A stretch of 64,000 nucleotides of DNA from a virus, in IMG/VR virus record IMGVR_UViG_3300031413_000005, positions 45,430-109,429 of that record; one strand, given 5' to 3'. Under the pieces are notes generated by a model. That model saw nothing but the letters and a program-made list of their open reading frames with translations. It was not told the DNA's origin and ran no database searches. This document shows, one piece after another, positions 10,597 to 41,952 of the stretch (within the stretch, counting starts at the first letter, position 1; each line of letters starts with the position of its first letter). The position numbers and the translations under genes were made by a program.

Positions 10597-10610
10597 TGGT
10601 CACTCCGGTT

Positions 10611-10634
10611 TGCATGTGTGTCGTCTACCATGCA
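10611..10634 (-). repeat. 24-bp dispersed motif
   Basis: tgcatg-tgtgtcgtctac-catgca (consensus). Confidence 0.9.
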
Positions 10635-10681
10635 CGCGGTTTGATGCAAGAGTGAATTTGCGCGCACGGTCAGTGGAAATG

Positions 10682-10712
10682 AAAAGACCGCCCCTCACGA
10701 GGAGGGACGGTC
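10682..10712 (-). terminator. rho-independent terminator ending the late/lysis transcript
   Basis: GACCGTCCCTC-loop-GAGGGGCGGTC followed by TTTT on the minus strand. Confidence 0.7.
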
Positions 10713-10726
10713 GGATAGAGGATTAA

Positions 10727-10762
10727 TTAACGGATGGGCTTGCCGATGGGCCAATAGCGCAT
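10727..10762 (-). CDS. 11-aa micropeptide MRYWPIGKPIR
   Basis: AAGGAG RBS 7 nt before ATG; lies between the endolysin and the terminator. Confidence 0.45.
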   Translation of the reverse strand: MRYWPIGKPIR

Positions 10763-10818
10763 GGAGTCTCTCCTTTCTGTGTTGCTGAAGTGGTTAGGAA
10801 ACCGGTGCCGGCGGTCGA

Positions 10819-21825: not shown

Positions 21826-22189
21826 AGAGGTATGCCGCAAGCGGAGTAAACATGCCGTTGGTCAGGCGGTCGGTGGTGACACCGGTCGCCTCGAACGCGT
21901 GGAGGAAACGGTCGCCGGTCAACGTGAAGCCGACATGCGCGCCGATACCCTCGACACGCAGGGTCACCAGCGAGCCGACGGTGCCGATCGGAACTCGGCG
22001 CCAGCGTGCGCTCTCGGACGAGATGAGGTCTGCAACCTCCTCGATCGTACCTGGACTTTCGAAGTCGGGAAGAACGACACCTGCGCGTCGAAACATCTCG
22101 ATCGCCAACCCATAGCAATCATAGGCGTCGGGACCACGCGCGCCGCGTTTGAACGGCACGCCAAGGAGATCGAGATATTCGGGTGTCAT
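21818..22189 (-). CDS. tail assembly protein, NlpC/P60 (lambda K-like)
   Basis: GARGPDAYDCYGL...HVG...FLHA. Confidence 0.85.
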   Translation of the reverse strand: MTPEYLDLLGVPFKRGARGPDAYDCYGLAIEMFRRAGVVLPDFESPGTIEEVADLISSESARWRRVPIGTVGSLVTLRVEGIGAHVGFTLTGDRFLHAFEATGVTTDRLTNGMFTPLAAYLYA

Positions 22190-23255: not shown

Positions 23256-26200
23256 CTAACCTGCTCCAAGCTGTTTGAGCGCGGTGCGGAGCGGGCCTTG
23301 CTTACTGGTCGCCTCGGTGACGATGCCGATGACCCAGTCCTTCCCGTTGAAGGACGGCTCGCTCGCTTCGGCCTCCATGTCCGTGCCGCTGTTGTTGATG
23401 AAGTCGATCTTAACCGACGGAGCGACACCGCCCCCGCCTGCGAGCCGTCGACCAAGGAGGTTCTGCTGATCTTCCGTCAGCATGAGCTCCTTTTCCTTGG
23501 CGATGATCGGATGCTCGCCTGGCTGGAGCGGTCGCTCACCGATAAAGCCGCCCGTGTGATACTTCGCGGCGTTCGCAAAGATGGCCGGGTTGACCCCGCT
23601 GACCGTCTTGAGAGCACCACCGATCACACCGCCCGTGTGGGCTACCGGGGTCTTTGCGGCCGAGTAACCGATGCTGGACTTCGAGCCGTTATTCAGCCCC
23701 ACGCCTGCCCCCATCTGACCCTTCAGGAACGAGCCCATGCTGACGTGCTTGCCGTCCGAGTTGTTCGCCATGCCGATCGCCGAGAGGATTGCGTAGGCAA
23801 TCATCGCCGTAAGGATCACCTTCATCAGGCTCTTGACCACACCCAGCACGAACTCACCGGTATTGAACTCGGCCTCACCGATGCCGTCGGCGTAGCTCGC
23901 CACGGCGTCGGCCATCGTCGACTGGATGCCCTGGCCCATCTTGGCCCAGTCGCGACCCATGCGAGTGATTGCGCCCTCGTTCTGGCGAGCAAGCTGCGCC
24001 TTCGAACCGCGGTCCCACTCAGCAAACGCCTTTTCCATATCGAGGCGACGCTGCGACCCGGCTGCGGTCAGCTCGATCAGGCGGCGCTGACGCGCGACCT
24101 CCAGCTCGTAGTTCTTCTGGCGCTGGTCGTTCTCCGACAGCAGGCTGTTCCGCATCTCGATCGCTGCATCGCTCCAGCCCTGGGCAATGTCGGCCGCGTC
24201 TGCGTCCTTGAAGTTCTGGACGATCTTGTCGATCGTGGCGTTCGCCGAAGCGAGATCGTCGCCCTTCAGTCCGTCGGTCAGACCAGCGAAGCGCGACGTG
24301 ATCTGCGCGAGCCGCTTGTCGGTCTCCATCGTCCCCGACGAAAACGACTTCCACAGCGCATCGGCTTCGGTGCGTGACTTCGACAGTTCCGCGTCGAGCC
24401 GACCTGTGGATGCCTTCACGTCCTTCTGGCGATTGAGGCTCTCGACGATCTTCAGATACTCGCGCATCTGGTCGATCTTCTCCTGCGGCACGCCCTTAAA
24501 CGCACCGGCCTCGAATTGAGCGTTGAAGCTGGCAAGGTCACCCTCGCCGCCCTGGAGCTCGTCGCGAAGCCCGGCGATCTTGCCCGCGAGGTTCGTCAGG
24601 CGCGTGTCGAGGTCGTCTGCTGCGTTTGCGGCGTCGGCCTGCCCACCCTTCGCGGCGGTCAGCGCATCCTTCATTGCCATCTGGCCGCGCACGACGTCGA
24701 GCTGAGCCTTGCTCCAGCCCTTATACTTCGGCGCACCAGCTGCGACCTCTGCGTTGAATTTCGCGAGGTTGCCGGCAGAGCCGTCCAGCTGAGCCTTGAG
24801 CTTGGCGACATTACCTGCACCCGCTGCCATAGCGGCCGGGAAGCTGCTCTTGCCGCCTCCACCACCGCTCACGGCATTCGCGGTGCCTTCCAACGCGCCA
24901 TTGGTCGCATCTGCCTGCTGCTTGAGCTGCCGAAGTGCCGAGATCATCGGACCCGACTTGAGACCCTTTGCCGTTCGAGCATCGACCATTGCCTGAAGGC
25001 TACCGATACGGTTCTGGAGATCGCCAGACGCCTTCTTGTCGTACTTGGCGCGCAGCTCCGCATCGATCGCAGCGATCTTCTTCTGATCGGTTACGCCCTT
25101 GGTGCGGATCTGCTGCTCGCGGACGTAGCTCTGCGAAAGACGGTCCAGGAAGGCGTCATGATCCGAGGTGACCTTGTTTTGCCACTGCTGCTGCCGCTGC
25201 ACATAGGCGGTCTGTTGACCCGCGGCGCGTGCGCCCACGAGGTCGTCATCCTCCTTCTTGATTTCAGCGAGGCGCTTCTTGCGCGAGGCGTCGTTGACGA
25301 ACCAGGCGCCGTTGCCGGTGTTCTGGTGCGACTGACCGGATACGCCGATCCCCTTGCCCATGTCCTCGTTGAGCTCGCGAGCTTCCGCGGCCAGGTTCGC
25401 ACGCTGCATGGCAACCTTTGCGGCGTCACCGGCTTCCTGGAACCCCTGACGCATGCGCTGCGCTGCTGCGGTCGCACGGTCAGCCGCGGTCTCGAACACG
25501 CCGAAAGCCGTTGCTGCCTGGTAGGCGAGCATCGCGATGATGCCGACCGGACCGAGCGCAAGGTTGACCGCGGCCCCGAGCGCGGTCGTTGCCACTGCGG
25601 CAACGCCGGTTGCAGCGCTATAGACGCCCTTGGCAAGCGCTGCTGCGCGCGTGGCGAGCGTCGACTCGACCGTCGATGCAGTCTCGGCATTCTGTGCTCG
25701 GACAAGCGCTGCCTCGGCCAGGATCTGGCGCTCGACGTTCGCGAGGATCTGGAACCCGACGCTGACCTTGCCCTTACCCGCGACAGCATTCCCAGCCATT
25801 GCGGCCGTCTCGCGAGAGATCGCAGCGGTGACGCCCGCGGTCGCCGTCGCAAGCCGTGCCTTGGCCGAAATCTCCTGCGCGGTCTCTGCGCGGCCGGCGA
25901 GGCGACGAGCGCGCACTTCGCCTTCAACCCGTGAAAGGTTGGCTGCGGCGAGGGCTGCATTGCGCTGGGCTTGCGCAAGCTCGCTCTCCGCGATCGTCTG
26001 CTGCCGAAGCGCGGTGCGAATCTGCTGTGCGCGCTGTGTGCGGGTCAGGGCCGAGTTGTTGGCTGCGGCGTCGGCCTGGGCGCGAGCGACGGACAGACGC
26101 TCGATTGCGGCCTGCTCCTCCGCTGTCATGGCGATCGACTGAGCGCGAGCGGCCTGGATCGCCGGATCGGACGCCATGTTCTTCGTCGCCTTGGCGATCG

Positions 26201-27674
26201 CCAGCTCGCGCACGCGGATCAGCTCTTGCTCGGCTGCTGCTGCGGCTGCGCGTGCCATGACGACATTCTGCGATGCGGCGAGCTGGCCTGCGCGCGAAGC
26301 GGCGTTCTGCGCGGCCTGCGTGGCGCGAAGCTGCGTCTCCTGCAACTTGAGCAGGACCAGTCGATTGTTCTCGTTCACGACGGCCTGGGCGGCGCCCGCG
26401 GCTGCTGCGCGTGCGCGCTGAGCTTCAGCCTGCGCGGACCCAAGGATCGTCACCCGGCCCGTCGCGACCGCCATGTTGTAGCGGATCTGCGCAACGGTGC
26501 CGTTGTCGACGCCCGAGAACAACGTGCGCATGTTTGCGCCGAGATTCGTCAGGTAGCCGGCGAGATTGTTCAGCATCTGGCCGAGCGAGTTCGCCCACGC
26601 CAGGCCCGTCTTCATCGCCCAGACGGTCGCGAGCGCCTTTGCGGCAAAGCCCACCTGATCCTTGAACTGGACCACGGTCTTGATGACCGACACCAGCAGG
26701 CCCGCGACATTGCCGACACCCGCGCCGAACGACGCCAGGAACGACCGGGCCTCGGTCGAGCGCATGAGCGTGTTGAGCTGCTTCATCTCCCCGACGACGC
26801 GGCCGAAGAAGCTGTCTTTTTGACCCATGCCGGTGAAGTCGGTGGTGAGCTGCGCCCAATTCGACTTCACCTGCGCCATCTGGCCGAACAGGGTGTTTGC
26901 GAGCTTCTCGCCCGAGCCGTGGTAGACGCGCTCCATCTCGGCGAACATCGCGGCAAGCGCTGGCTTGGCCTGGACGGTCCCCTTCTGGATCATCTTGGCG
27001 AGTTCGGGCATCGACTTGCCCATGGCACGCGCCATCAGGCTCATAGCCGACGGCACCGCTTCACCCAGCTGCTGGCGAAGTTCTTCCATCGAGATGACGC
27101 CCTTGCCGGCCATCTGCTGGATCGCGATCGCGGCGCGGTTGAGGGTGTCACTGTTACCGCCGAACGCCGCGGTCGCGTCGACCAAGCCACGGAGCGAACC
27201 GTTCATCGGGTCGATGCCGCCCGACTTGATCTTGACGAACGACTGCGCGAGTTCCTGGACTGCAAAGCCCGAGGTGCGCGCGATCTGGTAGAGCGACGAA
27301 AGGCTCTGCTGCGCTTCCTTGCTCTTGCCGATGTCGGTGGTTGCGGTCGACAGGCCCTTCATGAGGACCGTCAGGCGCTCGATCTCGCCCGCCTGCTTGA
27401 AGATCGCGCCCAGCCAGCCGACCGAGACGTCCTTCAGCGTGAGGAATGCGGAGCGCGCCTGGCCCAAGATGACCATCAGGTCGCGCAAGCGGGCGGTGGG
27501 CGAGGACATCGAACGCCCGACGTTGCCCATCGTGGCGCTGAAGCGATTGGCCTCGAGCCCGGTCGAACGTACCGCACCGCCGAAGTTCAGGACGTCGCCC
27601 TTGGCGCCCGAGAGTTTGCCGTTCCACCGCGAGGTATCGAGATCGAGGACGACGCTTAGTTTACGGACGGCCAT
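23256..27674 (-). CDS. tape measure protein
   Basis: 1472 aa, Ala-rich helical; QMAGKGVISMEELRQQLGEAVP tape-measure motif. Confidence 0.9.
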   Translation of the reverse strand: MAVRKLSVVLDLDTSRWNGKLSGAKGDVLNFGGAVRSTGLEANRFSATMGNVGRSMSSPTARLRDLMVILGQARSAFLTLKDVSVGWLGAIFKQAGEIERLTVLMKGLSTATTDIGKSKEAQQSLSSLYQIARTSGFAVQELAQSFVKIKSGGIDPMNGSLRGLVDATAAFGGNSDTLNRAAIAIQQMAGKGVISMEELRQQLGEAVPSAMSLMARAMGKSMPELAKMIQKGTVQAKPALAAMFAEMERVYHGSGEKLANTLFGQMAQVKSNWAQLTTDFTGMGQKDSFFGRVVGEMKQLNTLMRSTEARSFLASFGAGVGNVAGLLVSVIKTVVQFKDQVGFAAKALATVWAMKTGLAWANSLGQMLNNLAGYLTNLGANMRTLFSGVDNGTVAQIRYNMAVATGRVTILGSAQAEAQRARAAAAGAAQAVVNENNRLVLLKLQETQLRATQAAQNAASRAGQLAASQNVVMARAAAAAAEQELIRVRELAIAKATKNMASDPAIQAARAQSIAMTAEEQAAIERLSVARAQADAAANNSALTRTQRAQQIRTALRQQTIAESELAQAQRNAALAAANLSRVEGEVRARRLAGRAETAQEISAKARLATATAGVTAAISRETAAMAGNAVAGKGKVSVGFQILANVERQILAEAALVRAQNAETASTVESTLATRAAALAKGVYSAATGVAAVATTALGAAVNLALGPVGIIAMLAYQAATAFGVFETAADRATAAAQRMRQGFQEAGDAAKVAMQRANLAAEARELNEDMGKGIGVSGQSHQNTGNGAWFVNDASRKKRLAEIKKEDDDLVGARAAGQQTAYVQRQQQWQNKVTSDHDAFLDRLSQSYVREQQIRTKGVTDQKKIAAIDAELRAKYDKKASGDLQNRIGSLQAMVDARTAKGLKSGPMISALRQLKQQADATNGALEGTANAVSGGGGGKSSFPAAMAAGAGNVAKLKAQLDGSAGNLAKFNAEVAAGAPKYKGWSKAQLDVVRGQMAMKDALTAAKGGQADAANAADDLDTRLTNLAGKIAGLRDELQGGEGDLASFNAQFEAGAFKGVPQEKIDQMREYLKIVESLNRQKDVKASTGRLDAELSKSRTEADALWKSFSSGTMETDKRLAQITSRFAGLTDGLKGDDLASANATIDKIVQNFKDADAADIAQGWSDAAIEMRNSLLSENDQRQKNYELEVARQRRLIELTAAGSQRRLDMEKAFAEWDRGSKAQLARQNEGAITRMGRDWAKMGQGIQSTMADAVASYADGIGEAEFNTGEFVLGVVKSLMKVILTAMIAYAILSAIGMANNSDGKHVSMGSFLKGQMGAGVGLNNGSKSSIGYSAAKTPVAHTGGVIGGALKTVSGVNPAIFANAAKYHTGGFIGERPLQPGEHPIIAKEKELMLTEDQQNLLGRRLAGGGGVAPSVKIDFINNSGTDMEAEASEPSFNGKDWVIGIVTEATSKQGPLRTALKQLGAG

Positions 27675-27692
27675 CGGTTGATCTCGATCCAC

Positions 27693-28010
27693 TCACTTGC
27701 TGTTGAAATTGGCCTGCATTTCGAGGAACTTGGCCTCGTCGAAGCCCTTGATGACGAGCATCGGCGAGCCGACCTCGGCGCGCAGGCTGGCAAAGAGCTC
27801 CTTCGCCGTGTCGCCGGAGCTGGCCGCGATCAGGAGCTGAAGGGTGCGCTGGTCACGCTCGGCCTGAAGGCGATCGATCTGCTTGTTGGCGGACCAGAAC
27901 GACTTCAGGGGAAGCGACAGAACCTGCGTGTGTGTCAGCCCGTATGCACTTGCTACGCGCCAGAAGAAGAAGGGGAGATCGACTGATTCCAGCCGGTCTC
28001 CCTCTAGGCG
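27693..28010 (-). CDS. tail assembly chaperone, T-like segment reached by -1 frameshift
   Basis: open -1 frame after slippery G GGA AAC (28010-28016): ...ESVDLPFFFWRVASAYGL...EMQANFNSK; no ATG near its 5' end. Confidence 0.75.
   Translation of the reverse strand, partial: RLEGDRLESVDLPFFFWRVASAYGLTHTQVLSLPLKSFWSANKQIDRLQAERDQRTLQLLIAASSGDTAKELFASLRAEVGSPMLVIKGFDEAKFLEMQANFNSK
27925..27948 (-). repeat. 24-bp motif, intragenic degenerate copy
   Basis: tgcgtg-tgtgtcagcccg-tatgca. Confidence 0.5.
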
Positions 28011-28438
28011 TTTCCCTCGGCGTCCGTCGCACCTTCAGCGCCGGCATCGTTCATGTCCTGGCTCATCTGGTTGAGCCAGGCGAAGATCGTGAACAACTTG
28101 GGGACCGGCAGCTGGTTGACCGGCAGCGTGGGGAAGAACGAGATGACGGCGTCGCGAATGACTTCGACGGCCTTCAGCTCGGCGTCCTGCGCTTCCTCGA
28201 CGGTCGCGTCGGGCGAGTTCGCGGCGAGCTCGACCAGGCGCTCGTGCTCCTGGGCGCGAGCCTGCTGCTCGACGAAGCCTTCGACGGTGAGGATCACCAT
28301 CGCGTGCTCGACGCCTTGATGCTTGATCTTGATGTCCGACTCTGTGGTCGGCATCTCGTCGAGGTTGAGGTAACGGGGGCCAGTGCTGGTCAAGGGAATA
28401 CCGTGCTGTTCGAAGGTGGGCGGGGTGACCGAAGTCAC
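28004..28438 (-). CDS. tail assembly chaperone (G-like)
   Basis: between tube and tape measure; ends ...EGNA at the slippery site. Confidence 0.75.
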   Translation of the reverse strand: MTSVTPPTFEQHGIPLTSTGPRYLNLDEMPTTESDIKIKHQGVEHAMVILTVEGFVEQQARAQEHERLVELAANSPDATVEEAQDAELKAVEVIRDAVISFFPTLPVNQLPVPKLFTIFAWLNQMSQDMNDAGAEGATDAEGNA

Positions 28439-28447
28439 CCCGACGGG

Positions 28448-28975
28448 TTAGGCTGCGGTGAGCGCCGGATCGCCGAAGACGCAGAGCGTGTCGGTGGTCA
28501 GGTCCACGTAGCCCGTGAACTCGACGTTGAAGATGCGCTGGTCGTCGACCTTGTAGGCGAAGGTCATGTCGCCCTTGCTGTTCGCGATCGGCACGACGAA
28601 GTCGCGGCTCTTGTCGGTGTCGGGCATGCCCTTGGGATGCAGGACGAGAATGCCGGCCGACTTGCGCAGCGATGCGCCAACACCCGAGCCGAGCGTCAGC
28701 TTCTTCTTGGTGCCGTTGGTGACGAGCGTCGCGCCCGGCGTCACCGCGAGCAGCTTGTCGAGATCGCGCTCTGCCATCGGCACCTTCACGGTGACCTTAC
28801 GGCCCTTGATGACTTCGTCGATCGCGGTCTCGCCGAACTGGTCAGCGGTAATCATCGTGGACTCGGTCGCGATGGCAACTTCGCAGCCGCCCTTGGTGAG
28901 GCCGAGGTTCACGCCCTTAAAGGTGGGCGTGCATGGACCCATCTCGAGGTTTTCAAAATTGGTGGCGTCAGCCAT
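28448..28975 (-). CDS. major tail (tube) protein
   Basis: LGLTKGGCEV...DQFGET.ID...VKVPMAE; synteny. Confidence 0.8.
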   Translation of the reverse strand: MADATNFENLEMGPCTPTFKGVNLGLTKGGCEVAIATESTMITADQFGETAIDEVIKGRKVTVKVPMAERDLDKLLAVTPGATLVTNGTKKKLTLGSGVGASLRKSAGILVLHPKGMPDTDKSRDFVVPIANSKGDMTFAYKVDDQRIFNVEFTGYVDLTTDTLCVFGDPALTAA

Positions 28976-29027
28976 TTCAGACATCTCCAAGTCGGTTTTG
29001 ATCGTTCGGATCTATTTAGCAGTGGCA

Positions 29028-32404: not shown

Positions 32405-33322
32405 TCAAATGTTGGTGACACCACCCAGGCGGGCCAGCGACTTCGTCGACTTCAGCGCCAGGCCGGTGTACCACTTCACGCGGTAGCGCTCGGCGTCCTT
32501 GTTCTGGACCGGGCCGACCGAGCTCACCCGAACGCCTGCGGTGGGACCACCGAAGATGCCGTGGACGCCGTCGGCTTCGTTGAAGCGCGCTGCGTAGATC
32601 GAGCAGGTCGTCGGGGCCGCGCCGCGCACTTCCTTGTCCGACAGGAAGTCGTTGATGATGATCGGGACCGAACGATACGACGGGACCGAGATCTTGCGAT
32701 CACCACCCAGCGAGATCGTGACGTGCTCGGGGTTGGTGCCGCCCAGCTGGCGCAGCATCGCGGCGATCGCGTCGGTCGTGCCACCGCGCATCACCAGCGC
32801 GTCCGCACCGAGCGGGATCATACGGAGCAGACGATCGAGGTTCTCGAAGGTCAGCGCGCCGCCATTGCCACCCGAGCCGGCATAGAAGGTCTGGTCCGCC
32901 GTCACGAGACGCTGGATGCCGTCGAACTCCTTGTTGCGGGCCGAGTTGTCGCCCTGGACCAGCGTGCGCTGGAACTTGCGGCTCATGCCCTTCACCTTGG
33001 CGGCGATCTGAACGGCCGTCTGGTCGTTCGTCTCCGACATGGTCTCGTCGAGGAAGTTGTCGACGTCGACGTCGCCGATCAGGATGCGGAGCTTCGCCAC
33101 GACTTCCTGGAACGTCGAAGCGCTCTCGTTGATCGTGTCGTTCGGATCGAGGAAATCACCCTCGGCCAGCTCGAGCTCGCGGTCGTAGATGTAGCCCTTG
33201 CCCTGGATGCGCATGAAGGGCAGCATCGCGAACATGGCATCGTTGTCGATGATCTCCTCGATCACGCCCCGCTCGAGGGTCGTGGTCGAGAGCTTCTCGG
33301 CTTCCACACGAAGCAAAGGCAT
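32405..33322 (-). CDS. major capsid protein
   Basis: 305 aa, GDVDVDNF, EFDGI, strong AGGAG RBS, downstream of the scaffold gene. Confidence 0.85.
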   Translation of the reverse strand: MPLLRVEAEKLSTTTLERGVIEEIIDNDAMFAMLPFMRIQGKGYIYDRELELAEGDFLDPNDTINESASTFQEVVAKLRILIGDVDVDNFLDETMSETNDQTAVQIAAKVKGMSRKFQRTLVQGDNSARNKEFDGIQRLVTADQTFYAGSGGNGGALTFENLDRLLRMIPLGADALVMRGGTTDAIAAMLRQLGGTNPEHVTISLGGDRKISVPSYRSVPIIINDFLSDKEVRGAAPTTCSIYAARFNEADGVHGIFGGPTAGVRVSSVGPVQNKDAERYRVKWYTGLALKSTKSLARLGGVTNI

Positions 33323-33419: not shown

Positions 33420-34166
33420 CTACCGCCGATTGCTCGCACGCAGGTTTGCGAAGCCCTCCGCGAACAGCTGATGACGGCTCTTGCCCGTGTCGGGGTCGGT
33501 CTTGCCGCCATCGGTGCGCGAGCCCGCGCCGGGCTTGGCGTTCGACTTCAGCAGGTCGTCCTTGTCGGGATCGGCCATGATGACCTTCTCGATCGCGGCT
33601 TCGAAGCCCAGCGGCTTGCCGGAACCGTCGACCAGCATCGTGCGCTTCGCGGCGCCCTTGGGCTTGTCATAGACGACGGTCTCGCCATCGACGACTTCCG
33701 CATGCTCGTGGAACAGGGTGCGAACCTTGCCGACCGGCAATGCGACCTTCTCGCGGAGGAACTTGCTTTCGTTGAAGGCGCGGTCGATCGCCATGTTGTC
33801 GAGGCGGGCGTCTGCGGCCGACTTGCCGGTCTTCAGCTCCTCGATCTGCGCCTGGAGCGCCGCTTCCTTGGCGTCACGCTCGGCGACCATCAGCTCGCGC
33901 ACGCGCTCCCAGTTGCCCTCGGCTTCGGCCTTTGCCTTCTCGGCATCGCGCTTCGCAGCTTCCGACGCGTCACGCGCGGCGATTGCTGCCTTGGCTGCGG
34001 CCGGGTCGAGGCCCTCGAACTGTGCGAGGCTGGCGTCGCGGCTTGCGAGTTCGGCGCGCAGACGTTCGAGCTCAGCCACATTGGCGTCGGGCTTCTCGTC
34101 CTTCTTGTCGGCTGCTGCGGCTGCTGCTGCGGCCGCATCTGCTGCGGCCTGTTCTTCTGGATCCAC
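33420..34166 (-). CDS. capsid scaffold protein
   Basis: Ala/Glu/Lys coiled coil, C-terminal KPGAGS; upstream of the capsid gene. Confidence 0.75.
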   Translation of the reverse strand: MDPEEQAAADAAAAAAAAADKKDEKPDANVAELERLRAELASRDASLAQFEGLDPAAAKAAIAARDASEAAKRDAEKAKAEAEGNWERVRELMVAERDAKEAALQAQIEELKTGKSAADARLDNMAIDRAFNESKFLREKVALPVGKVRTLFHEHAEVVDGETVVYDKPKGAAKRTMLVDGSGKPLGFEAAIEKVIMADPDKDDLLKSNAKPGAGSRTDGGKTDPDTGKSRHQLFAEGFANLRASNRR

Positions 34167-34232
34167 GAAACACCTTTACTTGAAACTATGTAGGTGTGGC
34201 TATTGTGCCACACCTACCCCGAGTTTGCAACG

Positions 34233-34256
34233 CGCATGTGTGTTACAGACCATGCG
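34233..34256 (-). repeat. 24-bp motif with compensatory arm change
   Basis: cgcatg-tgtgttacagac-catgcg; abuts TTGCAA-17-CACAAT. Confidence 0.8.
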
Positions 34257-34257
34257 G

Positions 34258-35514
34258 CTACTTGCCGACGATTTGCGTCACGTATGGATTGACGGGAACG
34301 CTGTATCGCGTCGCCTTGGAGCCATCCATCTTGTAGATGTAGCTCTCCGGCCAGATACGACCGCCGCCCCACCACGTCGCGCCCTTGAGCACATCGGCGT
34401 TGGCGCGCAGCGCTTCGATAGCCTCCTGCCCCACAGCCTTGCAGGTCGAATGCACACCATAGCTCGAGCCGAATGCGGACTCAGTGATGTAGGCTTGGAG
34501 GTTGCGCCGGCGAAGCTGCTCGGCGAACTCGACGAACCCGCTGGTCTTGGCGTCGCATTCCTTGCTCGTGCCCGACGAACCCCGATCGAAGTAGCGGTGG
34601 GCGTTGATGCGCGTCAGGCCGAGCGGGTCCTTCAGGCCACCCCCGCGGTCGATCGCGCAGGCCGCGCTCTCGCAAGCCTTGTTCGGTCCTTCATGCTTGT
34701 CGAAGCGGAACGATGCTGACCACTGCGGATATTCGAGCAGGATCGGGTGCCGGATACCGTTCGCACGCAGACCGGCGATGATGATGTTGCTGTCGCGCAG
34801 CCACTGGTCCCAGTCGTTTGTCAGGACCGGATCATCGAAGCCCTTCGGCTCGTTGACCAGGTCGAGAAGTACAGACCCATCATCAGGGAAGTTTCGCGCG
34901 AAGGCCGTCCAGTCGGCGATCATCACCGAAGGCACGCGCCAGGTGTAATCGTGGCGGTCGAGGATGACGGGAACACCCTTGCTGCCAGCATAGGCGACGC
35001 TGACCTTCAGGTCTGCGACCCGGGCCGGGGTCATGCGCTCCAGCTTGAACGGGTAGCGGATGAGCTGGAAGCCGTACCGCTCGATGTAACCCGTCCAGTC
35101 CTCGATCGACGGCCGAACCGCGTCGCTTCCGCTTGCTTCGGCGCCGGATAGGTTTGCACCGAACAGCACCTTTGCGGGCTTTACTGCTGCGGCGCAGGGA
35201 GCCGCGTCGATCGGTGCGTAGACCCAGCCCTTGCCCTGGACGTTCTCGACGAACCGGATCTTGCTGGCGCCGATCGTCTCGAACCAGTTGCCGGCCGCGT
35301 CCGAACGCGCGCGATCGTTCCAGCCCTTCCACCCCTTCTCACGCGAGCCGTCGGCCAGGAGCTCGCGGCCCATCTTCTTTTTGAGAACTAGGGTGTCGCC
35401 CGCGCAGACGGTAATCTGCGCGGGAGGGTTGGCGCCGGTGACGATGTGTTCGGTCCGCGCAGCTACCGGCGTGGAGAGGAGCGCGGCGATGGCGAAAACG
35501 ACGCCGCGGATCAC
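34258..35514 (-). CDS. secreted glycoside hydrolase family 5 (endoglucanase-like)
   Basis: signal peptide; GANLSGAE, RYPF, ILDRHDY, DLVNEP (acid/base), HRYFD, ITES (nucleophile), WWGGG. Confidence 0.85.
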   Translation of the reverse strand: MIRGVVFAIAALLSTPVAARTEHIVTGANPPAQITVCAGDTLVLKKKMGRELLADGSREKGWKGWNDRARSDAAGNWFETIGASKIRFVENVQGKGWVYAPIDAAPCAAAVKPAKVLFGANLSGAEASGSDAVRPSIEDWTGYIERYGFQLIRYPFKLERMTPARVADLKVSVAYAGSKGVPVILDRHDYTWRVPSVMIADWTAFARNFPDDGSVLLDLVNEPKGFDDPVLTNDWDQWLRDSNIIIAGLRANGIRHPILLEYPQWSASFRFDKHEGPNKACESAACAIDRGGGLKDPLGLTRINAHRYFDRGSSGTSKECDAKTSGFVEFAEQLRRRNLQAYITESAFGSSYGVHSTCKAVGQEAIEALRANADVLKGATWWGGGRIWPESYIYKMDGSKATRYSVPVNPYVTQIVGK

Positions 35515-38393
35515 TGGTCGAGCGCCTTAAAGCCAGAGGGGATGGGGATGGTCATCGTGGCAGCAGTGAAGCGGGCGACGAAGTTCCCGACCCCTCGGAA
35601 CGAACAACATGCGGAATAGCCCGAGTTCCGTCGCCCGACAGCGGCAACGTCAAGGGCGCGAATTTGCGATATGTCGATGCCTCCAACACCGGTTGCCGGG
35701 TTCGCATCAGCCGAACCATTGAACAGGGTTGACGTAGAAGGTCGCACCCAAAGAAGATCAGCGTCCGCATCCACGCAGAAAAGATACGACCCGCCACTCG
35801 GCACAGCCTCTGCTTTAGCATTCGCAACAGCGGCGAGAAGCATGGTGACTTGCCCGTTGGCGACAGGATTAAAGCCGATCCCCTCGTTTGTTGCGTACAC
35901 GGTGCCGCTCTGCGGCTTGTTCAGCTTGGTGAGGTGTCCGACAACGCCAAGCATCATATTCGCGGGCGTTCCCGTATAACCGACCTCCCAGCAGTATTTA
36001 CCGGTGCGAATGATCGGGTAACCGTAGACCACGGTCCCGCCACCGCCGCTCGGAAGCGAGGCAATGTCTGCGCCCCGGATAGCGGAAGCTGCGTCGCCGT
36101 TGGCGTTGGTCAAAACCACAGCCGTAGAATGGTCGAACCAGCTCCACGTCAGCGGCCCGAAGGTCCGAACGCCAGGAGCTGCGACTGCCTTGTTGATTGC
36201 GGCGCTATAAACTGGCCCGAAGTATTCAACCGCTGTGTTCTTGAAGTGCGTGCCGTCACCCGAGAAATCTACGGTAACCTTCGCAGCAGTATCGAGCTCT
36301 GGAACTGAGCCCAAATCGAACATGTAATCCGCGTTTAGGTAGCTGCTGTATAGGGCGCGAATGCTCTGGTTGAGCGGCACGGTAGCGCCGTCGAAGTTGT
36401 GCTCGACACTGGTATCAGTGGCATCGAACGCCACGTTATTGCGTGACGGGATGGTGCCGACAAGGGTTCGTTGGAACCCGACGCCACCAGCTCTGACCAT
36501 TACGGAACGGAGAGCCCGCATGATGGAGTCATGCGCCTGGAACACGCCGTCGTTGGTGCCGGCCATGATCGTGCCGATATTCATATCGACGTTGGGGTTA
36601 AAGGCAGGCCCCATGCCGACGTCCGAACCGGTGCCACCAAGCGGTCCTGCCGTTACCGAGATAGGCCCCGAGCCACCAGTGCCGTTCGCGAACTGGCTTG
36701 CCATGATTGCCGCAGTCTGACCGCTCAAAGACAGCTTGCGGTAAGTGTAGGTCGGCCCGGCAGTCAGGCCCGATACCACACCTCGATCGACGTAGCTGTT
36801 GATGCCACCAGGCGTACCGCCGATGCCGGTCGTGTTGCTGTCGCCCTCGGCAGCGATCTGCACGGTGGACGGCAGGTTCGAGAAGGCGTCATCGTTAAGG
36901 ATAGTGCCGGTCGCGCTCATCGATGCGCCCGTGACGTAGCCGCTCGGGGTCGAGATCAGGACGGTGAACGTCTCGTCAGGTTCGAATGAAGGGTCGCCGT
37001 TGACGCTAATCGAGAAGGTCCCAGTCGCGACACCGTCTGCCATCGCGACGTTTCCACCAGCAGGGAACGACCCACCGGTGAAGTCGCTCGCCGAAGTGCT
37101 GCCCGCGGTGAACGACCACGGAACATTGATCGCGCCCGTCGTCGACGATCGCGTCACGGTGTAGGTGAACACGGTTGCGCCGCTGTTCCCTTCGGACTTC
37201 GATTGCGCGCCCGACATGGTGACAGTTGGCGCAGCGTCGTCGTTTGTGATCGTGCCGGTCGACGTCACGGTGTTGAGCCCAGCTGCCGTAACAGCGAGGG
37301 TGAACGTGTCGTTGGGCTCGAATGCGGTGTCGCCCGCGACAATCACCGAAATGGTCTTGCTCGTCTCGCCTGCTGCAAACGTACCGCTGCCGGCCGGGAA
37401 TGCACCGCCGAAGTCTGCCGCGTCGGCCGGGTTTGCACCGCTACCCACGGTGGACCAGCTGAACGGATACGCTGCCGTGCTGCCGTCTCGGTTGAGCGTG
37501 AGGGTCCAGGAGAAGACAGCCGTTCCGCTGTTGCCTTCGGACTTGGTGACCGCAGACGAGAGCGACAGGGAAGGCGCTGGGACCGCAGCAGCAGCTGATA
37601 CCGTAACCGGGGAGGAGGTCGACTTGATCGTCTCTCCGTTGGTGCCAAGCACGGTATTCTCGCGGGTCAGCGAGCCCGTGGCATTCGGCGTGACCGTGGC
37701 GCCGGTGCCAATCGCGGTCGTGCCGAGCAGCCAGCGACGGCTCGTGATCGTGCCGTTCGTGGGGGTGCCGTCTGTCGCGGAGAAGGTCGTTCCGACCGCG
37801 CCGCTACTTGGCGAGATCGTCGGCTGGGTAAGCGTGGGCGACGGGATCGGCGTTACGGTTTCGCCGTCACCTGCGACCAGATCCGGGTCGCCGAAGACGC
37901 AGAGTGTGTCGGTTTCCAGGTTCACATAACCGTTGAACTCGACCGCGAACACACGCTGGTCGTCAACCTTGTAGGCGAAGGCCATGTCGCCCTTGCAGCT
38001 GGCAAGCGGGATGGTGAAGTCGCGGCTCTTGTCCTCGATCGGCATGCCCTTGGGGTGCAGAACCAGCGCGCCCGAAGTCTTGCGCAACGACGCACCGACG
38101 CCCGAACCGAGCGTGAGCTTCTTCCTCGCAAACTTGCCGATGCCGTTGGTTACGAGCGTCGCGCCAGGCGTCACGGCCAGGAGCTTGTCGAGATCGCGTT
38201 CAGCCATCGGCACCTTCACGGTGACCTTGCGACCCTTGATGACCTCGTCGATGGCGGTCTCGCCAAACTGGTCGACCGTGATGAGGGTCGATTCCGTGGC
38301 GATCGAGACTTCGACGCCGCCCTTCGTGAGACCAAGATCCAGGCCGCGATACGTCGGCAGGCATGGACCCATCTCAAGCTTTTCGAAACTCAC
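35511..38393 (-). CDS. tail-tube paralog fused to 2x Calx-beta, SGNH hydrolase and C-terminal beta (SPRY-like) domain
   Basis: N-terminal ~175 aa closely match the tube gene at 28448; two SEGNSG...GDT.FEP.ETF..ATGTI.NDD repeats; GDS, SGQT, GTND, DGTH. Confidence 0.8.
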   Translation of the reverse strand: MSFEKLEMGPCLPTYRGLDLGLTKGGVEVSIATESTLITVDQFGETAIDEVIKGRKVTVKVPMAERDLDKLLAVTPGATLVTNGIGKFARKKLTLGSGVGASLRKTSGALVLHPKGMPIEDKSRDFTIPLASCKGDMAFAYKVDDQRVFAVEFNGYVNLETDTLCVFGDPDLVAGDGETVTPIPSPTLTQPTISPSSGAVGTTFSATDGTPTNGTITSRRWLLGTTAIGTGATVTPNATGSLTRENTVLGTNGETIKSTSSPVTVSAAAAVPAPSLSLSSAVTKSEGNSGTAVFSWTLTLNRDGSTAAYPFSWSTVGSGANPADAADFGGAFPAGSGTFAAGETSKTISVIVAGDTAFEPNDTFTLAVTAAGLNTVTSTGTITNDDAAPTVTMSGAQSKSEGNSGATVFTYTVTRSSTTGAINVPWSFTAGSTSASDFTGGSFPAGGNVAMADGVATGTFSISVNGDPSFEPDETFTVLISTPSGYVTGASMSATGTILNDDAFSNLPSTVQIAAEGDSNTTGIGGTPGGINSYVDRGVVSGLTAGPTYTYRKLSLSGQTAAIMASQFANGTGGSGPISVTAGPLGGTGSDVGMGPAFNPNVDMNIGTIMAGTNDGVFQAHDSIMRALRSVMVRAGGVGFQRTLVGTIPSRNNVAFDATDTSVEHNFDGATVPLNQSIRALYSSYLNADYMFDLGSVPELDTAAKVTVDFSGDGTHFKNTAVEYFGPVYSAAINKAVAAPGVRTFGPLTWSWFDHSTAVVLTNANGDAASAIRGADIASLPSGGGGTVVYGYPIIRTGKYCWEVGYTGTPANMMLGVVGHLTKLNKPQSGTVYATNEGIGFNPVANGQVTMLLAAVANAKAEAVPSGGSYLFCVDADADLLWVRPSTSTLFNGSADANPATGVGGIDISQIRALDVAAVGRRNSGYSACCSFRGVGNFVARFTAATMTIPIPSGFKALDQ

Positions 38394-40021
38394 TTACCTG
38401 ACTCCTTGGCTTTATCGTCGGCCTTCACCGATCCCTTGTTGTTCTGTCCCTGCGAGCCGTTCTGTCCGGGGAGACGGCCGGGCTTCGGCGCCGTGGGGCG
38501 CCCAGCAGGCCCGCCAGGCATCAGCTCGGCCGGATCAGGCTCTGCGAGCCAGTCGCCGTCGATGTCGGCTTCGATGGCCTTCTTGTCGGTCTCGCTGACC
38601 TGGGGGTACATTTTGCCCGCCAGCTTCTTCATCTGGATCTTGCGGAGCGCCTTGGGCGCATTCATCACAGCCAGGCGCTGGGCGTTGTCCATGTCGTCGG
38701 CGAGGTTGCGGACGTCGAAGGTCGTCGGATACGTGACGTATTCTTTGCAGTCCTCAAGCTCCTCGAGGGTGCCCCACCAGCCCATCACGAGACGGTTGAT
38801 CGAGTTCTCGGCCGCGGCGAGCGCCATCGCCTTCGCGACCAGCATCGCGTTCAGGCGCTCGAAGTCATACGCCTTGGCGACGCCCGAGCTGTTGTCGATG
38901 CCGACCGAGTTGTCCGACTTGGTCCGCTCGCCGGCCATGCCGATCGAGTGGTAGATCTCGTCGATGATCTTAGAGATGACGGTGATGATGATCCCAGCCT
39001 GGCGAGGATCTGGGGACAGAAACTCCGGCGCGGAACCGCCTTCAGCATTGTAGGCGAACACCCGCTTGGTGCCCATCTCATACATCTGCTTCTGGGTGCC
39101 CTTCTTGCCCTCGTCGTCGTTGTCGGACTCGAGCAGTCCCTGATACGGGATCGCCAGCTGGCTGAAGGTCTGGTCCTGGATGATCGCGTCGAGGTTCGAC
39201 AGGTAGTTCGTGGCGCCGCGATCCATGTAGGCCACGTCGTCGATCAGGCCCTTGTTGGAGTAGAGCTCCTCGGACGGGTTGTGATCGACCGGCACGACCG
39301 GCACCGCGCCCAGCTTGTGCTCGGCGTTCTCACCGACCGCGGCGATGCGGTCACCGGCCTCGTTCTTGGCGACGGTGATGACGGCGTAAAATTCGGGCGT
39401 CCAGATGCGGAACTGCGTCGCGACCTTGCCGGAAGCGAGCGGGCTCACGTCGTCGCGCTTGGTCTCGGCCAGCAGGAACCACGACAGCTCGCCGTCCTCG
39501 TCATAGGCGAAATCGAGCGCGTCGATCGGGGACACCAGGTAGGCGTAGACGCGACCCTTTGATGCCTTTTCCTCGGCGACGGTCTTGGTCTCGGCGGGGA
39601 AGTTGTTGTCGACGACAACGTAGACGCGGCCGAAGATCGAGGACTTGCGCGAGATGGTGTCCATCAGCGTGTCGACTGGACGCTTCATGAGCGTCGCGTT
39701 CTTCCAGAACCGCTTGATCTTATCCGGAGCATCGGCGCTGCGCGCGATGTCGCCCTTCAGGACATATTTGTTGACGAGGTTCACGACCTCGCGTGTGTGC
39801 GGGAAGCGATAGGCGCGCTTCTTGCGCTCGCGAAATTCCCGCAGACCCTCCTTGTGATAGCGCCAGAGGTTCGCGTCGAACCACGAACGGCCCCCGTCAT
39901 GGGTCGCTTCGAGGAAACGCCAATGATCGAGGTTGTCCGCATATTCGGGGTGCCGGCGATCGACGATCGCGAGCAGGGCGTCAGACGATGCCGCCTTCAG
40001 TTCAGTGAGCGTGATAGCCAT
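38390..40021 (-). CDS. portal protein
   Basis: 543 aa after terL; VPVV, LIDDVAY.D, SSGVAKAYDF. Confidence 0.8.
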   Translation of the reverse strand: MAITLTELKAASSDALLAIVDRRHPEYADNLDHWRFLEATHDGGRSWFDANLWRYHKEGLREFRERKKRAYRFPHTREVVNLVNKYVLKGDIARSADAPDKIKRFWKNATLMKRPVDTLMDTISRKSSIFGRVYVVVDNNFPAETKTVAEEKASKGRVYAYLVSPIDALDFAYDEDGELSWFLLAETKRDDVSPLASGKVATQFRIWTPEFYAVITVAKNEAGDRIAAVGENAEHKLGAVPVVPVDHNPSEELYSNKGLIDDVAYMDRGATNYLSNLDAIIQDQTFSQLAIPYQGLLESDNDDEGKKGTQKQMYEMGTKRVFAYNAEGGSAPEFLSPDPRQAGIIITVISKIIDEIYHSIGMAGERTKSDNSVGIDNSSGVAKAYDFERLNAMLVAKAMALAAAENSINRLVMGWWGTLEELEDCKEYVTYPTTFDVRNLADDMDNAQRLAVMNAPKALRKIQMKKLAGKMYPQVSETDKKAIEADIDGDWLAEPDPAELMPGGPAGRPTAPKPGRLPGQNGSQGQNNKGSVKADDKAKESGK

Positions 40022-40029
40022 AGCGCGCT

Positions 40030-40066
40030 ATCATACCAGATTGCATGTGTGTTGCCTACCATGCAC
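40030..40066 (-). promoter_or_regulatory. 24-bp motif with -10, upstream of the portal gene
   Basis: 2 mismatches versus 22198-22234. Confidence 0.85.
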
Positions 40067-40069
40067 TGC

Positions 40070-41323
40070 CTACAGATCGATACCGATCGGCATGCGGACC
40101 TTGCGGCCGTAGTGATAGTGGATCGGGTAACCCACGGCGTCGGCCATGTGGTCCACACCCATCGTCTTGTCGACCATCGGCGTGCCCGGCTTGTAGATCG
40201 TCTGCTCCATCGCCTCGATGACGTGCGTGCATTTGGCGTCGAACCGGAGGCGGATCGTGCCGTCTGCGGTGCGCAGCATCGAGTTCACGGCCGACACGCG
40301 GTCCGCGACCAGTGGATGCTTCTTCGGGAAGATGAGCTTGATGTAGCCCTTCTCGCGGAAGACATCGAGGTCGCTCTCGCCGCGGCTGGAGCTGCGGTTC
40401 GAACCGGCCGGATCGGGGTAGATGGCGATCGAGCGCTTGTATTTGAAATAGCGGCGGTCGAGTTCCTCGGCCACCTCCATGACGTTCGAGTTCGGGAAGT
40501 GGATCTCGTCGATGATCCAGACCTCGCCGTTCTCCTGCACCTGCATGATTGCAGACGACATCGGATCGACGTTGAAGTCCTGGCCAACGATGATCGGTAG
40601 CTTCGGATTGAACGGGTAATTGCCGACGTGCTGCCGGCGATCGAACTGGTAATAGACGCGGCCCGACATGCTCTCGAACGACGCCTCGAACTCCTGACGG
40701 AAGCTCTTGGGGTCCATCGAGTTACGCGCGGTCTCGATCTCAGAAGGCGGGAAGAACGGGCTTTCGATCGTGGGAATCTGCCACGACATATACTCCAGTT
40801 TCTTCTGGTTCTTCTTGATCTGCCCGAGACGATACATCTCGTGGAAATGGTTGAAGGACTTCGGCGTGCCGATGATGAGCGCGCGACCGCGGGTGGTCGT
40901 CAGCGTCGGGAACAGAACCTCCTGCCAGACGCCCGGCCGGAAATCCTGGTACTCGTCCAAGATCAGGAAGTGCAGCGCACGGCCGCGCAGCGTGTCGGGG
41001 CGATCGGCGCCCTTCAGCTGGATGAGCACGCCGTTGATGAGGCGGATCTCGAGCCTGGTCTCGTGGGTCTTGCGGATCCACGACGCCGGTATGTTCGCCA
41101 GCAGCTCGTCCCACATCAGGTCGCGGGCCATCGTGAAGGTCGGCGCGACATACCAGATGATCTTAGGACCGCGGCCCCGCGCGGCGCGGATGATCTCGGC
41201 GCGCGCAAGCGTGGTCTTCCCGAACCGTCGACCCGCGACAAGCGTGCGGAAGCGAGCCGGGTGACGGAACACGTCGGCCTGCCCCTTGTGGAGCTTGATG
41301 TGGATCTTCGGTGGTTCGAACAT
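40070..41323 (-). CDS. terminase large subunit
   Basis: AGRRFGKT, LRG..L...ILDE, GTPK, FRQEFEASF, GQDFN, DHMADA. Confidence 0.93.
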   Translation of the reverse strand: MFEPPKIHIKLHKGQADVFRHPARFRTLVAGRRFGKTTLARAEIIRAARGRGPKIIWYVAPTFTMARDLMWDELLANIPASWIRKTHETRLEIRLINGVLIQLKGADRPDTLRGRALHFLILDEYQDFRPGVWQEVLFPTLTTTRGRALIIGTPKSFNHFHEMYRLGQIKKNQKKLEYMSWQIPTIESPFFPPSEIETARNSMDPKSFRQEFEASFESMSGRVYYQFDRRQHVGNYPFNPKLPIIVGQDFNVDPMSSAIMQVQENGEVWIIDEIHFPNSNVMEVAEELDRRYFKYKRSIAIYPDPAGSNRSSSRGESDLDVFREKGYIKLIFPKKHPLVADRVSAVNSMLRTADGTIRLRFDAKCTHVIEAMEQTIYKPGTPMVDKTMGVDHMADAVGYPIHYHYGRKVRMPIGIDL

Positions 41324-41328
41324 GAGGA

Positions 41329-41895
41329 TTAGCCGGCGTTGTCGCCGTCGTCCTCTGCATCCTCGTCCAGGCCGGTCTGATAGGACTCCTCGATCGCGTC
41401 CTGAATACCGGTGATCTCGTCGGTCGTGTATTCGCCGATGTTCAGATCCGGCAGTTCCTCGGACTGGTCCTTCAAATCGTCGATGCTCAGGATCGTCCAG
41501 ATCTCGGAGCGGCCCTTCTCGACGATCTTCATCGCGTTGCCGAGAACGATCAAGTCGGCGTTGATGCCAGGAAGGGCGCTGGCCTGATTGGCTTCGAGCA
41601 CCTTCTTCATCGCCATTCGCGTGATCGCAGTCACGTAGCCGGCGTGGTCCGACTTCAACTTGGTCGCCTCGGCAACGCGGCGGGCAAGCTCGGCACGGGC
41701 GGCGTCGTCAGCGTCGTTGCGCACCTCATCGAGACGCGACGCCTTTTCGATGCCGCGCTCCTTCAGGCCCTTCTCGATGGCCTGGCGCGACACCCCGAAC
41801 TGCTCACCCAGCTGTCGAGTGTTCTTCTCGCCGCGCTGGTAGAGGACGACGATGGTCGCCCATTCCGCAGCCGTGAGGTTCTTGCCGGTGGTCAT
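41329..41895 (-). CDS. terminase small subunit
   Basis: N-terminal HTH (LGEQFGVSRQAI), directly upstream of terL. Confidence 0.7.
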   Translation of the reverse strand: MTTGKNLTAAEWATIVVLYQRGEKNTRQLGEQFGVSRQAIEKGLKERGIEKASRLDEVRNDADDAARAELARRVAEATKLKSDHAGYVTAITRMAMKKVLEANQASALPGINADLIVLGNAMKIVEKGRSEIWTILSIDDLKDQSEELPDLNIGEYTTDEITGIQDAIEESYQTGLDEDAEDDGDNAG

Positions 41896-41928
41896 CTCTA
41901 GTCGTCTTTTATCGGGAGTGTCAAGCGG

Positions 41929-41952
41929 TGCATGTGTGTAGTCTACCATGCA
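41929..41952 (-). repeat. 24-bp dispersed motif
   Basis: tgcatg-tgtgtagtctac-catgca. Confidence 0.9.

Follow-up and report, generated by a model that had tools for sequence, protein, structure and literature searches.

A second tail-tube gene with a predicted esterase arm, coupled to a predicted exported GH5 glucanase, in a nickie-type siphophage

Why would a siphophage carry a second tail-tube gene, outside its tail operon, that continues into a long arm with an esterase-like domain and runs directly into the gene of a predicted exported glucanase? The question is raised by two genes on the minus strand of a 64,000-nucleotide (nt) stretch of the viral record IMGVR_UViG_3300031413_000005 (positions 45,430–109,429 of that record; this whole stretch is called the window). 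The first, at 35511–38393, is an intact open reading frame (ORF) of 960 amino acids (aa), whose product, P0001, begins with a paralogue of the tube protein of the same phage. The second, at 34258–35514, encodes the 418-aa P0002, a predicted endo-beta-glucanase of glycoside hydrolase family GH5. A sequence-only reading of the window had reported both ORFs, and they are present on this strand at these positions. The source record is 109,429 bp long and is rated 98% complete by CheckV, and the phage is a 109-kb siphophage of the nickie type. We infer, with moderate confidence, the following arrangement, including the incorporation, stoichiometry, activities, substrates, and cooperation that it entails: P0001 is a minor tube subunit that displays an esterase arm on the tail, and the exported GH5 enzyme acts in trans.

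The tube domain of P0001 and its arm

The tube domain occupies aa 1–175 of P0001 (37869–38393, minus strand). The sequence-only reading had matched a segment of about this length to the tube protein P0003 (180 aa; 28448–28990, minus strand), and the match was confirmed, with 80% protein identity over aa 2–174 (E = 1e-95). In PHROGs, aa 5–174 matched phrog_2175 (E = 6e-43) and phrog_1280 (E = 1.1e-26), and P0003 itself matched phrog_2175 (E = 9.7e-50); NCBIfam returned no family for P0001, P0002, or P0003. P0003 adjoins the tail chaperone and the tape measure and lies directly upstream of both. This is the slot that the phrog_2175/1280 family holds in Pseudomonas phage nickie and Paenibacillus phage Tripp, and likewise in the related viral contigs examined. 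P0001, on the other hand, lies between the portal and the scaffold and is therefore filed here as a tube paralogue and not as a major tail protein.

An AlphaFold2 (AF2) model of aa 1–270 gave Foldseek matches of probability 1.0 (E = 5e-6 to 1e-4) to pb6 of T5/DT57C, gpV of lambda, and the tube protein of mycobacteriophage Douge. Similarly, VIA-align gave Z scores of 9.7–7.8 to the tubes of Douge, Bxb1, JBD30, YSD1, Mystique, R4C, the gene transfer agent RcGTA, and SPP1. These scores are middling, yet the matches listed are consistently tube proteins. Taken together, the 80% identity, the slot held by the family, and the fold matches to solved tubes identify P0003, by sequence and model, as the major tube protein and the N-terminus of P0001 as its paralogue.

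Is the second copy a recent acquisition? The sequence-only reading had described long identical DNA runs and a recent duplication, and neither withstood comparison of the two copies. They agree at 79% of DNA positions, share no identical run longer than 26 nt, and have nonsynonymous (dN) and synonymous (dS) divergences of 0.13 and 0.74 (dN/dS ~0.18), so the duplication is old. Recent duplication and recent gene conversion are both ruled out by the dS and by the short identical run; because third-position identity is somewhat raised over codons 41–80, an old partial gene conversion between the copies may have occurred. By these measures, the two copies have been separate for a long time and under purifying selection. 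The differences are concentrated at aa 1–30 and 96–135, and aa 41–84 are 100% identical. P0001 retains 28 of the 28 invariant columns in a 12-sequence alignment of the family. The low dN/dS at this dS, the retained invariant residues, and the identical core indicate, at the level of sequence, that the tube domain is functional and no relic.

The tube domain of P0001 resembles P0003 of its own phage (80%) more than it resembles the tube of the nearest relative, locus L114 (66%; P0003 and the L114 tube are 73% identical), which fits either duplication within the lineage or co-evolution of the copies. Among proteins of 316–2000 aa, P0001 was the only fused form of its tube family that we found (weak evidence by its nature), and no match in a search of 528–1680 aa proteins aligned to its aa 1–175.

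Two further variants of this tube family were observed among the related loci. In L126–L135 and L139–L142 (e.g., L128:10001-10786), ~300 nt of extra coding sequence splits the tube gene between tube residues ~95 and 92–100. The insert looks like a domain of ~100 aa in the same surface loop that carries a short insertion in P0001, and it would be a third decoration route for the phrog_2175/1280 family. In L115 (9995-10762), the tube gene is 58% identical; read from the chosen start, it yields a product of ~256 aa (271 aa for the longest ORF) made up of the tube domain and a C-terminal extension of ~90 aa that resembles the tube-plus-Ig architecture of phrog_1280.

What does the remainder of P0001 consist of? 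A Pro/Thr/Ser linker (aa 176–188) and a PKD/Ig-like domain (aa 189–268) follow the tube domain (together 37590–37868, minus strand). The sequence-only reading had seen only a Thr/Ser linker here; the linker is present, and the stretch also holds the beta-sandwich, which in the AF2 model matches PKD, FN3, and Ig domains at Z ~8.5 (root-mean-square deviation, rmsd, 2.0–2.4). Copies of this domain that are ~80% identical follow other anchors in Sphingomonas proteins. The two Calx-beta repeats that had been described next (aa 269–505; 36879–37589, minus strand) pass the PF03160 cut-off in two stretches (38.6 bits versus 27) and show weak PDB sequence matches to the CBD domains of Na/Ca exchangers.

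The next domain, aa 506–742 (36168–36878, minus strand), had been called an SGNH domain with all of its catalytic blocks, and both the residues and the fold bear this out. S519 (GDS), G558, N614 (GTND), and D713 and H716 (DGTH) are all intact. A Pfam search of the C-terminal 459 aa gave no significant match, and PF13472 scored 12.7 bits (E = 0.18) on the SGNH domain, below its cut-off of 32.9; this is because the reach of the Pfam model, which does not define the superfamily, falls short for a rare and divergent subfamily. PHROGs likewise holds no family for the SGNH-SPRY part, and an exhaustive HMMER search with the C-terminal region marked the family as rare, with 60 matches in 1.8 billion representatives. 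Twenty-nine relatives of this region were aligned, and it was then folded (predicted local distance difference test, pLDDT, 78.6; predicted template modelling score, pTM, 0.84). In the model, residues 508–740 matched the acetyl-xylan esterase 7tog at Z 18.0 (rmsd 2.7, 186 aligned residues), 4rsh at Z 17.3, the CE3 esterases 5b5s (Z 17.2) and 2vpt (Z 16.9), and many GDSL proteins. The catalytic residues are kept in 26–28 of the 29 aligned homologues, the remainder being gaps. By fold and sequence, the domain belongs to the SGNH/GDSL superfamily, carbohydrate esterase type, and esterase activity is predicted.

The C-terminal beta domain of the sequence-only reading (aa 743–960; 35514–36167, minus strand) also proved real: in the same model, residues 745–960 form a SPRY/B30.2-like beta-sandwich, with Z 20.4 to the DDX1 SPRY domain 4xw3 (rmsd 2.3, 175 aligned), 19.5 to 7ccb, 19.3 to 6e2h, and a Foldseek probability of 1.0 (E = 5e-8) to the SPSB2 SPRY domain. 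Pfam PF00622 was undetected in P0001 itself and is on record just for a homologue, P0037. Judging from the fold, the SPRY domain is a probable ligand-binding domain. Searches of the rest of the window for other parts of the cassette found none.

The GH5 partner and the site of insertion

P0002 passes the PF00150 cut-off by a wide margin (70.6 versus 23.5 bits, aa 136–383), and its best PDB sequence match is Cel5A 9p41 (E = 1.2e-15); its closest solved relatives are Cel5A-type endoglucanases. The two glutamates that the sequence-only reading had picked out as catalytic, E222 in VNEP and E345 in ITE, align with the catalytic Glu of "mNEP" and "ylgE" in 9p41. From its sequence, P0002 is a GH5 endo-beta-glucanase, with predicted activity. 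PHROGs holds no family for it.

A signal peptide had also been proposed. By inspection and conservation, a Sec-type signal peptide covers aa 1–20 (35455–35514, minus strand), with the cut predicted after VAA and before RTEH. Its layout (a basic MIR start and a hydrophobic run, ending in AAAQ/TEH with the A-x-A ahead of QTEH) is kept in ~50 homologues that are 62–77% identical and come mostly from Sphingomonas genomes and plant-associated metagenomes. The sequence is thus typical of a Sec-exported protein, and export of P0002 is predicted. We also observed a conserved domain of ~95 aa (aa 21–115; 35170–35454; TEHIVTGANPPAQ..VCAGDTLVLKK..) that separates the signal peptide from the GH5 barrel. 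Pfam and PHROGs gave no match for this domain, the ESM Atlas gave nothing usable, and it is absent from shorter homologues.

How are the two genes joined to their surroundings? The TGA stop of the portal gene overlaps the GTG start of P0001 in the sequence GTGA; an AAGGAG ribosome-binding site precedes this GTG by 8 nt. The TGA stop of P0001 overlaps the GTG start of P0002 in the same form. Thus the chain from the portal stop and the GTGA overlap at the fusion/GH5 junction, both claimed in the sequence-only reading, are found as described, and the cassette prolongs the translational chain that runs from terminase to portal. Such a placement would predict low, portal-like instead of tube-like expression.

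Downstream, a 91-nt spacer (34167–34257, minus strand) separates the stop of P0002 from the scaffold gene. It contains a promoter-like element, TTGCAA-17-CACAAT (34230–34202), which overlaps a perfect 11-bp hairpin (34217–34190), and its RNA fold is −32.8 kcal/mol (z −3.9). The closest relative of the phage, L114 (terminase 88% and capsid 86% identical), has blocks of this spacer directly after its portal stop. As an observation on the spacer itself, the blocks GTTGCAAA, GTGTGGCA, CACCTACA, and AGTAAAGGT stand upstream of the scaffold both in the window (34190–34230) and in L114 (about 4610–4680), where they can be read as promoter-like TTGCAA-17-CACAAT or CATTAT.

Insertion between portal and scaffold had been part of the sequence-only reading, which had also pointed to presence or absence in related phages as a check. 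The two-gene cassette is absent in all 16 of the related loci that span portal to scaffold. Because these loci lack the pair and the L114 spacer blocks adjoin the portal stop, the sequence comparison places the insertion of the 4.1-kb cassette exactly at the portal stop, upstream of the promoter-like element of the scaffold/capsid operon.

The rest of the structural module also lies on the minus strand. It comprises a small terminase-like gene (41329–41949), the large terminase (40070–41323), the portal (38390–40021; phrog_145, E = 6.6e-83), the scaffold (33420–34166), the major capsid gene (32405–33322), connector genes in the interval from capsid to tube, the tail chaperone (28004–28438), the 1478-aa tape measure (23256–27692), and a J-like tip protein (18184–21840). 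The gene order agrees with that of nickie, in which the scaffold directly follows the portal. A megablast comparison of the module with GenBank phages gave zero matches; its relatives are found at the protein level only. Phage DNA was found in phyllosphere and leaf-litter metagenome runs. The host genus is probably Sphingomonas, given this habitat and the resemblance of the cassette and the GH5 protein to Sphingomonas proteins.

The same cassette on other anchors

Is the arrangement a one-off? It is not: in Sphingomonas prophages, the cassette also occurs as a fusion with other virion anchors. With all of P0001 as the query, many Sphingomonas proteins were recovered that share the linker-Ig-Calx-beta segment at 55–83% identity; P0005 matches aa 183–960 at 60%, and P0004 matches the SGNH-SPRY part at 90–93%. 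The N-terminal domains of these relatives are different (~40–180 aa) and have no detectable sequence similarity to that of P0001. In the source databases, the proteins are unannotated or "hypothetical", and SGNH or SASA esterase domains are common among them.

The anchors fall into four classes. Class A (P0008, P0009, P0012, P0019, P0024, P0027, P0030, P0062, P0065) is the tube of HK97-like Sphingomonas prophages; its standalone form in S. aerolata, of 151 aa, matches phrog_158 "major tail protein" and is flanked by the connector genes on one side and by the chaperones and tape measure on the other. Class B (P0042, P0047, P0048, P0049) is the Rcc01079 head-spike base of RcGTA (NF048002, E = 1.1e-17). 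Classes C (P0005, P0011, P0050) and D (P0013, P0015) have N-termini without an assigned family. For the class C anchor, the ESM Atlas gave only sub-threshold viral hypothetical clusters (0.89), and in an S. xinjiangensis prophage the class C protein comes after the major head protein.

Three prophages (G119, G106, and G041) carry two class A tube genes each. One copy, of 146–150 aa, occupies the tube slot. The other closes the tail module, 12–14.5 kb downstream, and its product, of 271–1166 aa, has a tube-like N-terminus; the two copies are 66–80% identical to each other. Since these prophages use the unrelated phrog_158 family, the sequences indicate that a second tube gene with a long arm arose independently, with two tube families that lack detectable sequence similarity.

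Two side observations concern S. aerolata prophages. At G001:C3:488423-490744 (L094, L096, L098, L099), a 1013-aa protein encoded ~15 kb downstream of the tube gene occupies the position that tube-fused genes have in other prophages; it has three tandem Ig-like copies and an SGNH-like part and no tube-like N-terminus. At L009:10001-10861 and others, the 151-aa class A tube ORF is followed by a next ORF (10493-10861) in the same frame, with one TGA between. Similarity to the linker of the fused proteins continues for a few residues beyond this TGA, which may be due to chance (one in three) or to a readthrough extension.

Is the GH5 gene a regular partner of such proteins? The metagenome loci that were considered had a GH5 of at least 69% identity and an upstream stretch of 2.5 kb or more. 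At 15 of these 17 loci, an ORF of 847–1297 aa, fibre-like and modular, ends just before the GH5 gene; the 15 represent approximately nine distinct architectures. The loci come from a few related metagenome studies and include near-duplicates. SGNH or SASA esterase domains are frequent in these upstream ORFs. Their anchors include the class A tube (L148 and L151, both with the order tubeA-Ig-Calx-SGNH and then GH5), class D (eight loci), and a P0004-type N-terminus (L145). Furthermore, in the S. xinjiangensis prophage L108, a GH5 gene whose product is 64% identical to P0002 starts 5 nt after the gene of the 1226-aa cassette protein P0050. With this prophage and the 15 loci, the functional link between the esterase gene and the GH5 gene, which the sequence-only reading had drawn from one locus, is strengthened. 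The available data suggest the same pairing for P0025/P0225, P0015/P0214, P0019/P0265, and P0065/P0205. As a separate observation, two GH5 genes stand in tandem after P0050 (L108:9935-12561), the second without the N-terminal domain.

We also observed that the GH5 and SGNH-SPRY regions (34255–36756) are covered by contigs 3–10 times as deeply as the flanking phage genes in four plant-associated metagenomes. The extra depth comes from contigs with many differences, i.e., related sequences at ≥90% in the same samples, and this excess of divergent contigs indicates that other carriers of GH5/SGNH-SPRY modules are abundant in the same communities.

More tentatively, these data can be read as a portable two-gene module, made of an Ig/Calx-beta/esterase fibre and a Sec-exported GH5, whose anchor is freely exchanged in Sphingomonas phages and GTA-like elements. 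The use of a second tail-tube gene as the anchor would then have had at least two origins, in tube families that are unrelated, and would give enzymatically active arms; copy number would be set by operon placement and not by frameshifting, and the GH5 would leave through the host Sec pathway. We regard this generalisation as possible and somewhat doubtful.

Proposed function, rival explanations, and known systems

How might the two proteins work? P0001 would co-polymerise with P0003 around the tape measure at a low copy number, which would be set by its translational coupling to the portal gene and not to the tube gene. Tails of the lambda type follow a length rule of ~1.5 Å per tape-measure residue. 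The 1478-aa tape measure would accordingly imply a tail of ~220 nm with several hundred tube subunits, among which a portal-level supply of P0001 would give sparse arms. The remaining 785 aa would project from the tail as an arm consisting of the linker, the PKD/Ig-like domain, two Calx-beta domains, the SGNH domain, and the SPRY domain. This arm would bind and de-O-acylate an acylated polysaccharide of the host surface or matrix and thereby aid reversible adsorption and passage through the polysaccharide layer. P0002, for its part, would act in trans on a beta-glucan-type polysaccharide, working in the periplasm or beyond the infected cell and also once the cell has lysed, so that progeny are released or the matrix is opened; a virion that is assembled in the cytoplasm is unlikely to include an exported protein. 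Sphingomonas makes acylated sphingans with a backbone of beta-linked Glc/GlcA/Rha, which makes an order of esterase first and glucanase second on the host polysaccharide an attractive possibility.

The virion role of P0001 is suggested by the purifying selection on its tube domain, the 28 invariant residues, the identical core, the virion-anchor-type N-termini that the cassette always follows, and the recurrence of the design with another tube family. Similarly, an esterase role of the arm is suggested by the intact SGNH catalytic set and by SGNH receptor-binding proteins for which activity is experimentally proven. Of the proposal in the sequence-only reading, a decorated second tube subunit with a de-acylation and glucanase tool, the domain calls and the insertion thus stand and the decorated subunit is still the most economical account; the recent duplication has been dropped.

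Several points weigh against this account. The gene of P0001 sits in the head/packaging operon, outside the tail operon, which is unusual for a tail component. Compared with P0003, its tube copy is shortened at the N-terminus and carries four extra loop residues after residue 84, and the tube-domain model is of only moderate quality (pLDDT 66.8; Z 8–10 to tubes). The incorporation of P0001 into the virion is deduced from sequence, and a polymer shared by the esterase and the GH5 is likewise presumed. The 785-aa arm far exceeds any tube decoration documented to our knowledge, and it might hinder polymerisation unless P0001 is rare or limited to one ring. Finally, no GH5 was found next to the tube-fused genes of G119, G106, and G041, so the pairing is frequent and not obligatory.

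Could P0001 instead form one defined ring? In this main rival, a single hexamer at the tip, beside the distal tail protein (Dit), or at the neck, under the terminator, would make a collar with six side fibres, similar to an evolved Dit, the T5 collar, or the neck passage structure. Six large arms are sterically easier to place than many, and the tube fold is common to ring-forming Dit and terminator-proximal proteins, with Dit and baseplate chains present among the fold matches. The fused copy of class A prophages stands at the end of the tail module, where side fibres usually lie, and the differences at the N-terminus and at aa 96–135 could retune contacts from ring to ring. However, no sequence feature specifies such a position, the J-like and other tail-tip genes are already in the phage, and the 80% identity with a completely identical core at aa 41–84 predicts ordinary tube contacts, so that we consider a single ring possible and rather unlikely. 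It is less easy still to see the pair as a non-structural accessory module (moron) of two soluble enzymes, released at lysis or exported, in which the tube domain is a hitch-hiking remnant or serves just for oligomerisation. The cassette is indeed a mobile insertion, missing in the 16 related loci and placed outside the tail operon, and the GH5 is clearly no virion protein; however, a remnant would not be expected to show a dN/dS of 0.18 with every family-invariant residue kept, and a virion-anchor-type N-terminus (tube family A, the NF048002 head-spike base, or fibre-like) would be pointless on a soluble enzyme. We therefore consider this explanation improbable.

A further explanation concerns P0002 alone, which might be a lysis or cell-envelope enzyme, or a factor of lysogenic conversion or superinfection exclusion that trims the host receptor polysaccharide, with no partner in the esterase arm. 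The genes that follow tail fibres in prophages often serve lysis or conversion, and many P0002 homologues lie in bacterial chromosomes, which together with the predicted export agrees with such a role. The translational coupling of P0002 to the fibre gene within a late structural operon, and the fibre gene directly upstream at 15 of the 17 loci whatever the anchor, point the other way, as do the Cel5A endoglucanases that are its closest solved structures; we know of no GH5 enzyme of the Cel5A-like type that cuts peptidoglycan. An independent role of this kind is thus unlikely. As for the DNA itself, the record is a metagenome-derived viral contig, and related sequences in the same samples inflate the depth over GH5 and SGNH-SPRY, so that a chimeric contig or a collapsed repeat had to be considered; the sequence-only reading had itself allowed for misassembly. 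This was rejected, as exact contigs from other runs bridge the junctions: a 5.6-kb contig of run X1 spans 36409–40500, a contig of run X2 (37465–38547) bridges the portal/fusion junction, and a contig of run X3, from an independent sample and study (37432–38039), bridges the tube/Ig junction. The tube copies, at 79% DNA identity, are too divergent to collapse, and both gene junctions are in-frame GTGA overlaps with ribosome-binding sites. We consider an artefact extremely improbable.

If P0001 is in the tail, there would be a second genetic way of building a mixed tube, and P0001 would be the first enzyme-carrying tube subunit. The conserved fibre–GH5 pairing suggests that the work is divided between an enzyme on the virion and a Sec-exported enzyme released by the infected cell; this is relevant to the passage of phages through acylated exopolysaccharide and biofilm matrices in the phyllosphere. 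Furthermore, the interchangeable anchors (two tube families, the GTA head-spike base, and fibre N-termini) are natural display scaffolds that could be used for phage engineering.

How does this arrangement compare with known systems? Known tail-tube decorations are small Ig-like or carbohydrate-binding additions; the tube gene itself encodes them, and the proportion of decorated subunits is set by frameshifting. In the literature searched for an enzyme-bearing tube paralogue, a phage GH5 paired with a fibre, or Calx-beta domains in phage tails, no description was found. In the frameshift-extended tubes of SPP1 (gp17.1*) and the lactococcal 936 group (MTP/TpeX, 470–530 aa), a fraction of the subunits is decorated (PMC6669499). 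Like gp17.1*, TpeX, and lambda gpV with its constitutive Ig-like domain, P0001 combines a tube N-terminal domain with an outward adhesin or carbohydrate-binding extension, and its top fold matches, pb6 of T5/DT57C and lambda V, are decorated tubes. Unlike gp17.1* and TpeX, P0001 has a gene of its own, a diverged paralogue that lies 9 kb away in another operon and has its own start, and its 785-aa extension, unlike those of all three, carries an SGNH esterase besides binding modules. We considered membership among the frameshift or readthrough extensions and rejected it, as the chaperone gene comes after the P0003 gene, whose end is at 28448, and the decorated form is a separate intact ORF.

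The SGNH receptor-binding proteins gp63.1 of E. coli phage G7C and two Klebsiella prophage fibres are cited in PMC13123978 as proven deacetylases. As in these proteins, an SGNH esterase would stand on the virion (here by prediction) and deacetylate rather than depolymerise a surface polysaccharide. They are, however, tail-tip fibres or spikes with fibre-type anchors, whereas the anchor of P0001 is a tail-tube domain and its gene is paired with that of an exported GH5. The head spikes and tail fibres of RcGTA are polysaccharide-binding appendages for capsule or extracellular polysaccharide (PMC5026251, PMC7296036, PMC10218006). They share with P0001 the combination of a small virion-anchor domain and a polysaccharide-binding appendage, and an Rcc01079-type base also anchors this cassette; on the other hand, the RcGTA spikes attach at the head and have no tube paralogue. 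The Sphingomonas prophage proteins of classes A–D share the linker-Ig-Calx-beta segment with P0001 and are often followed directly by a GH5 gene; P0001 differs from them in its anchor.

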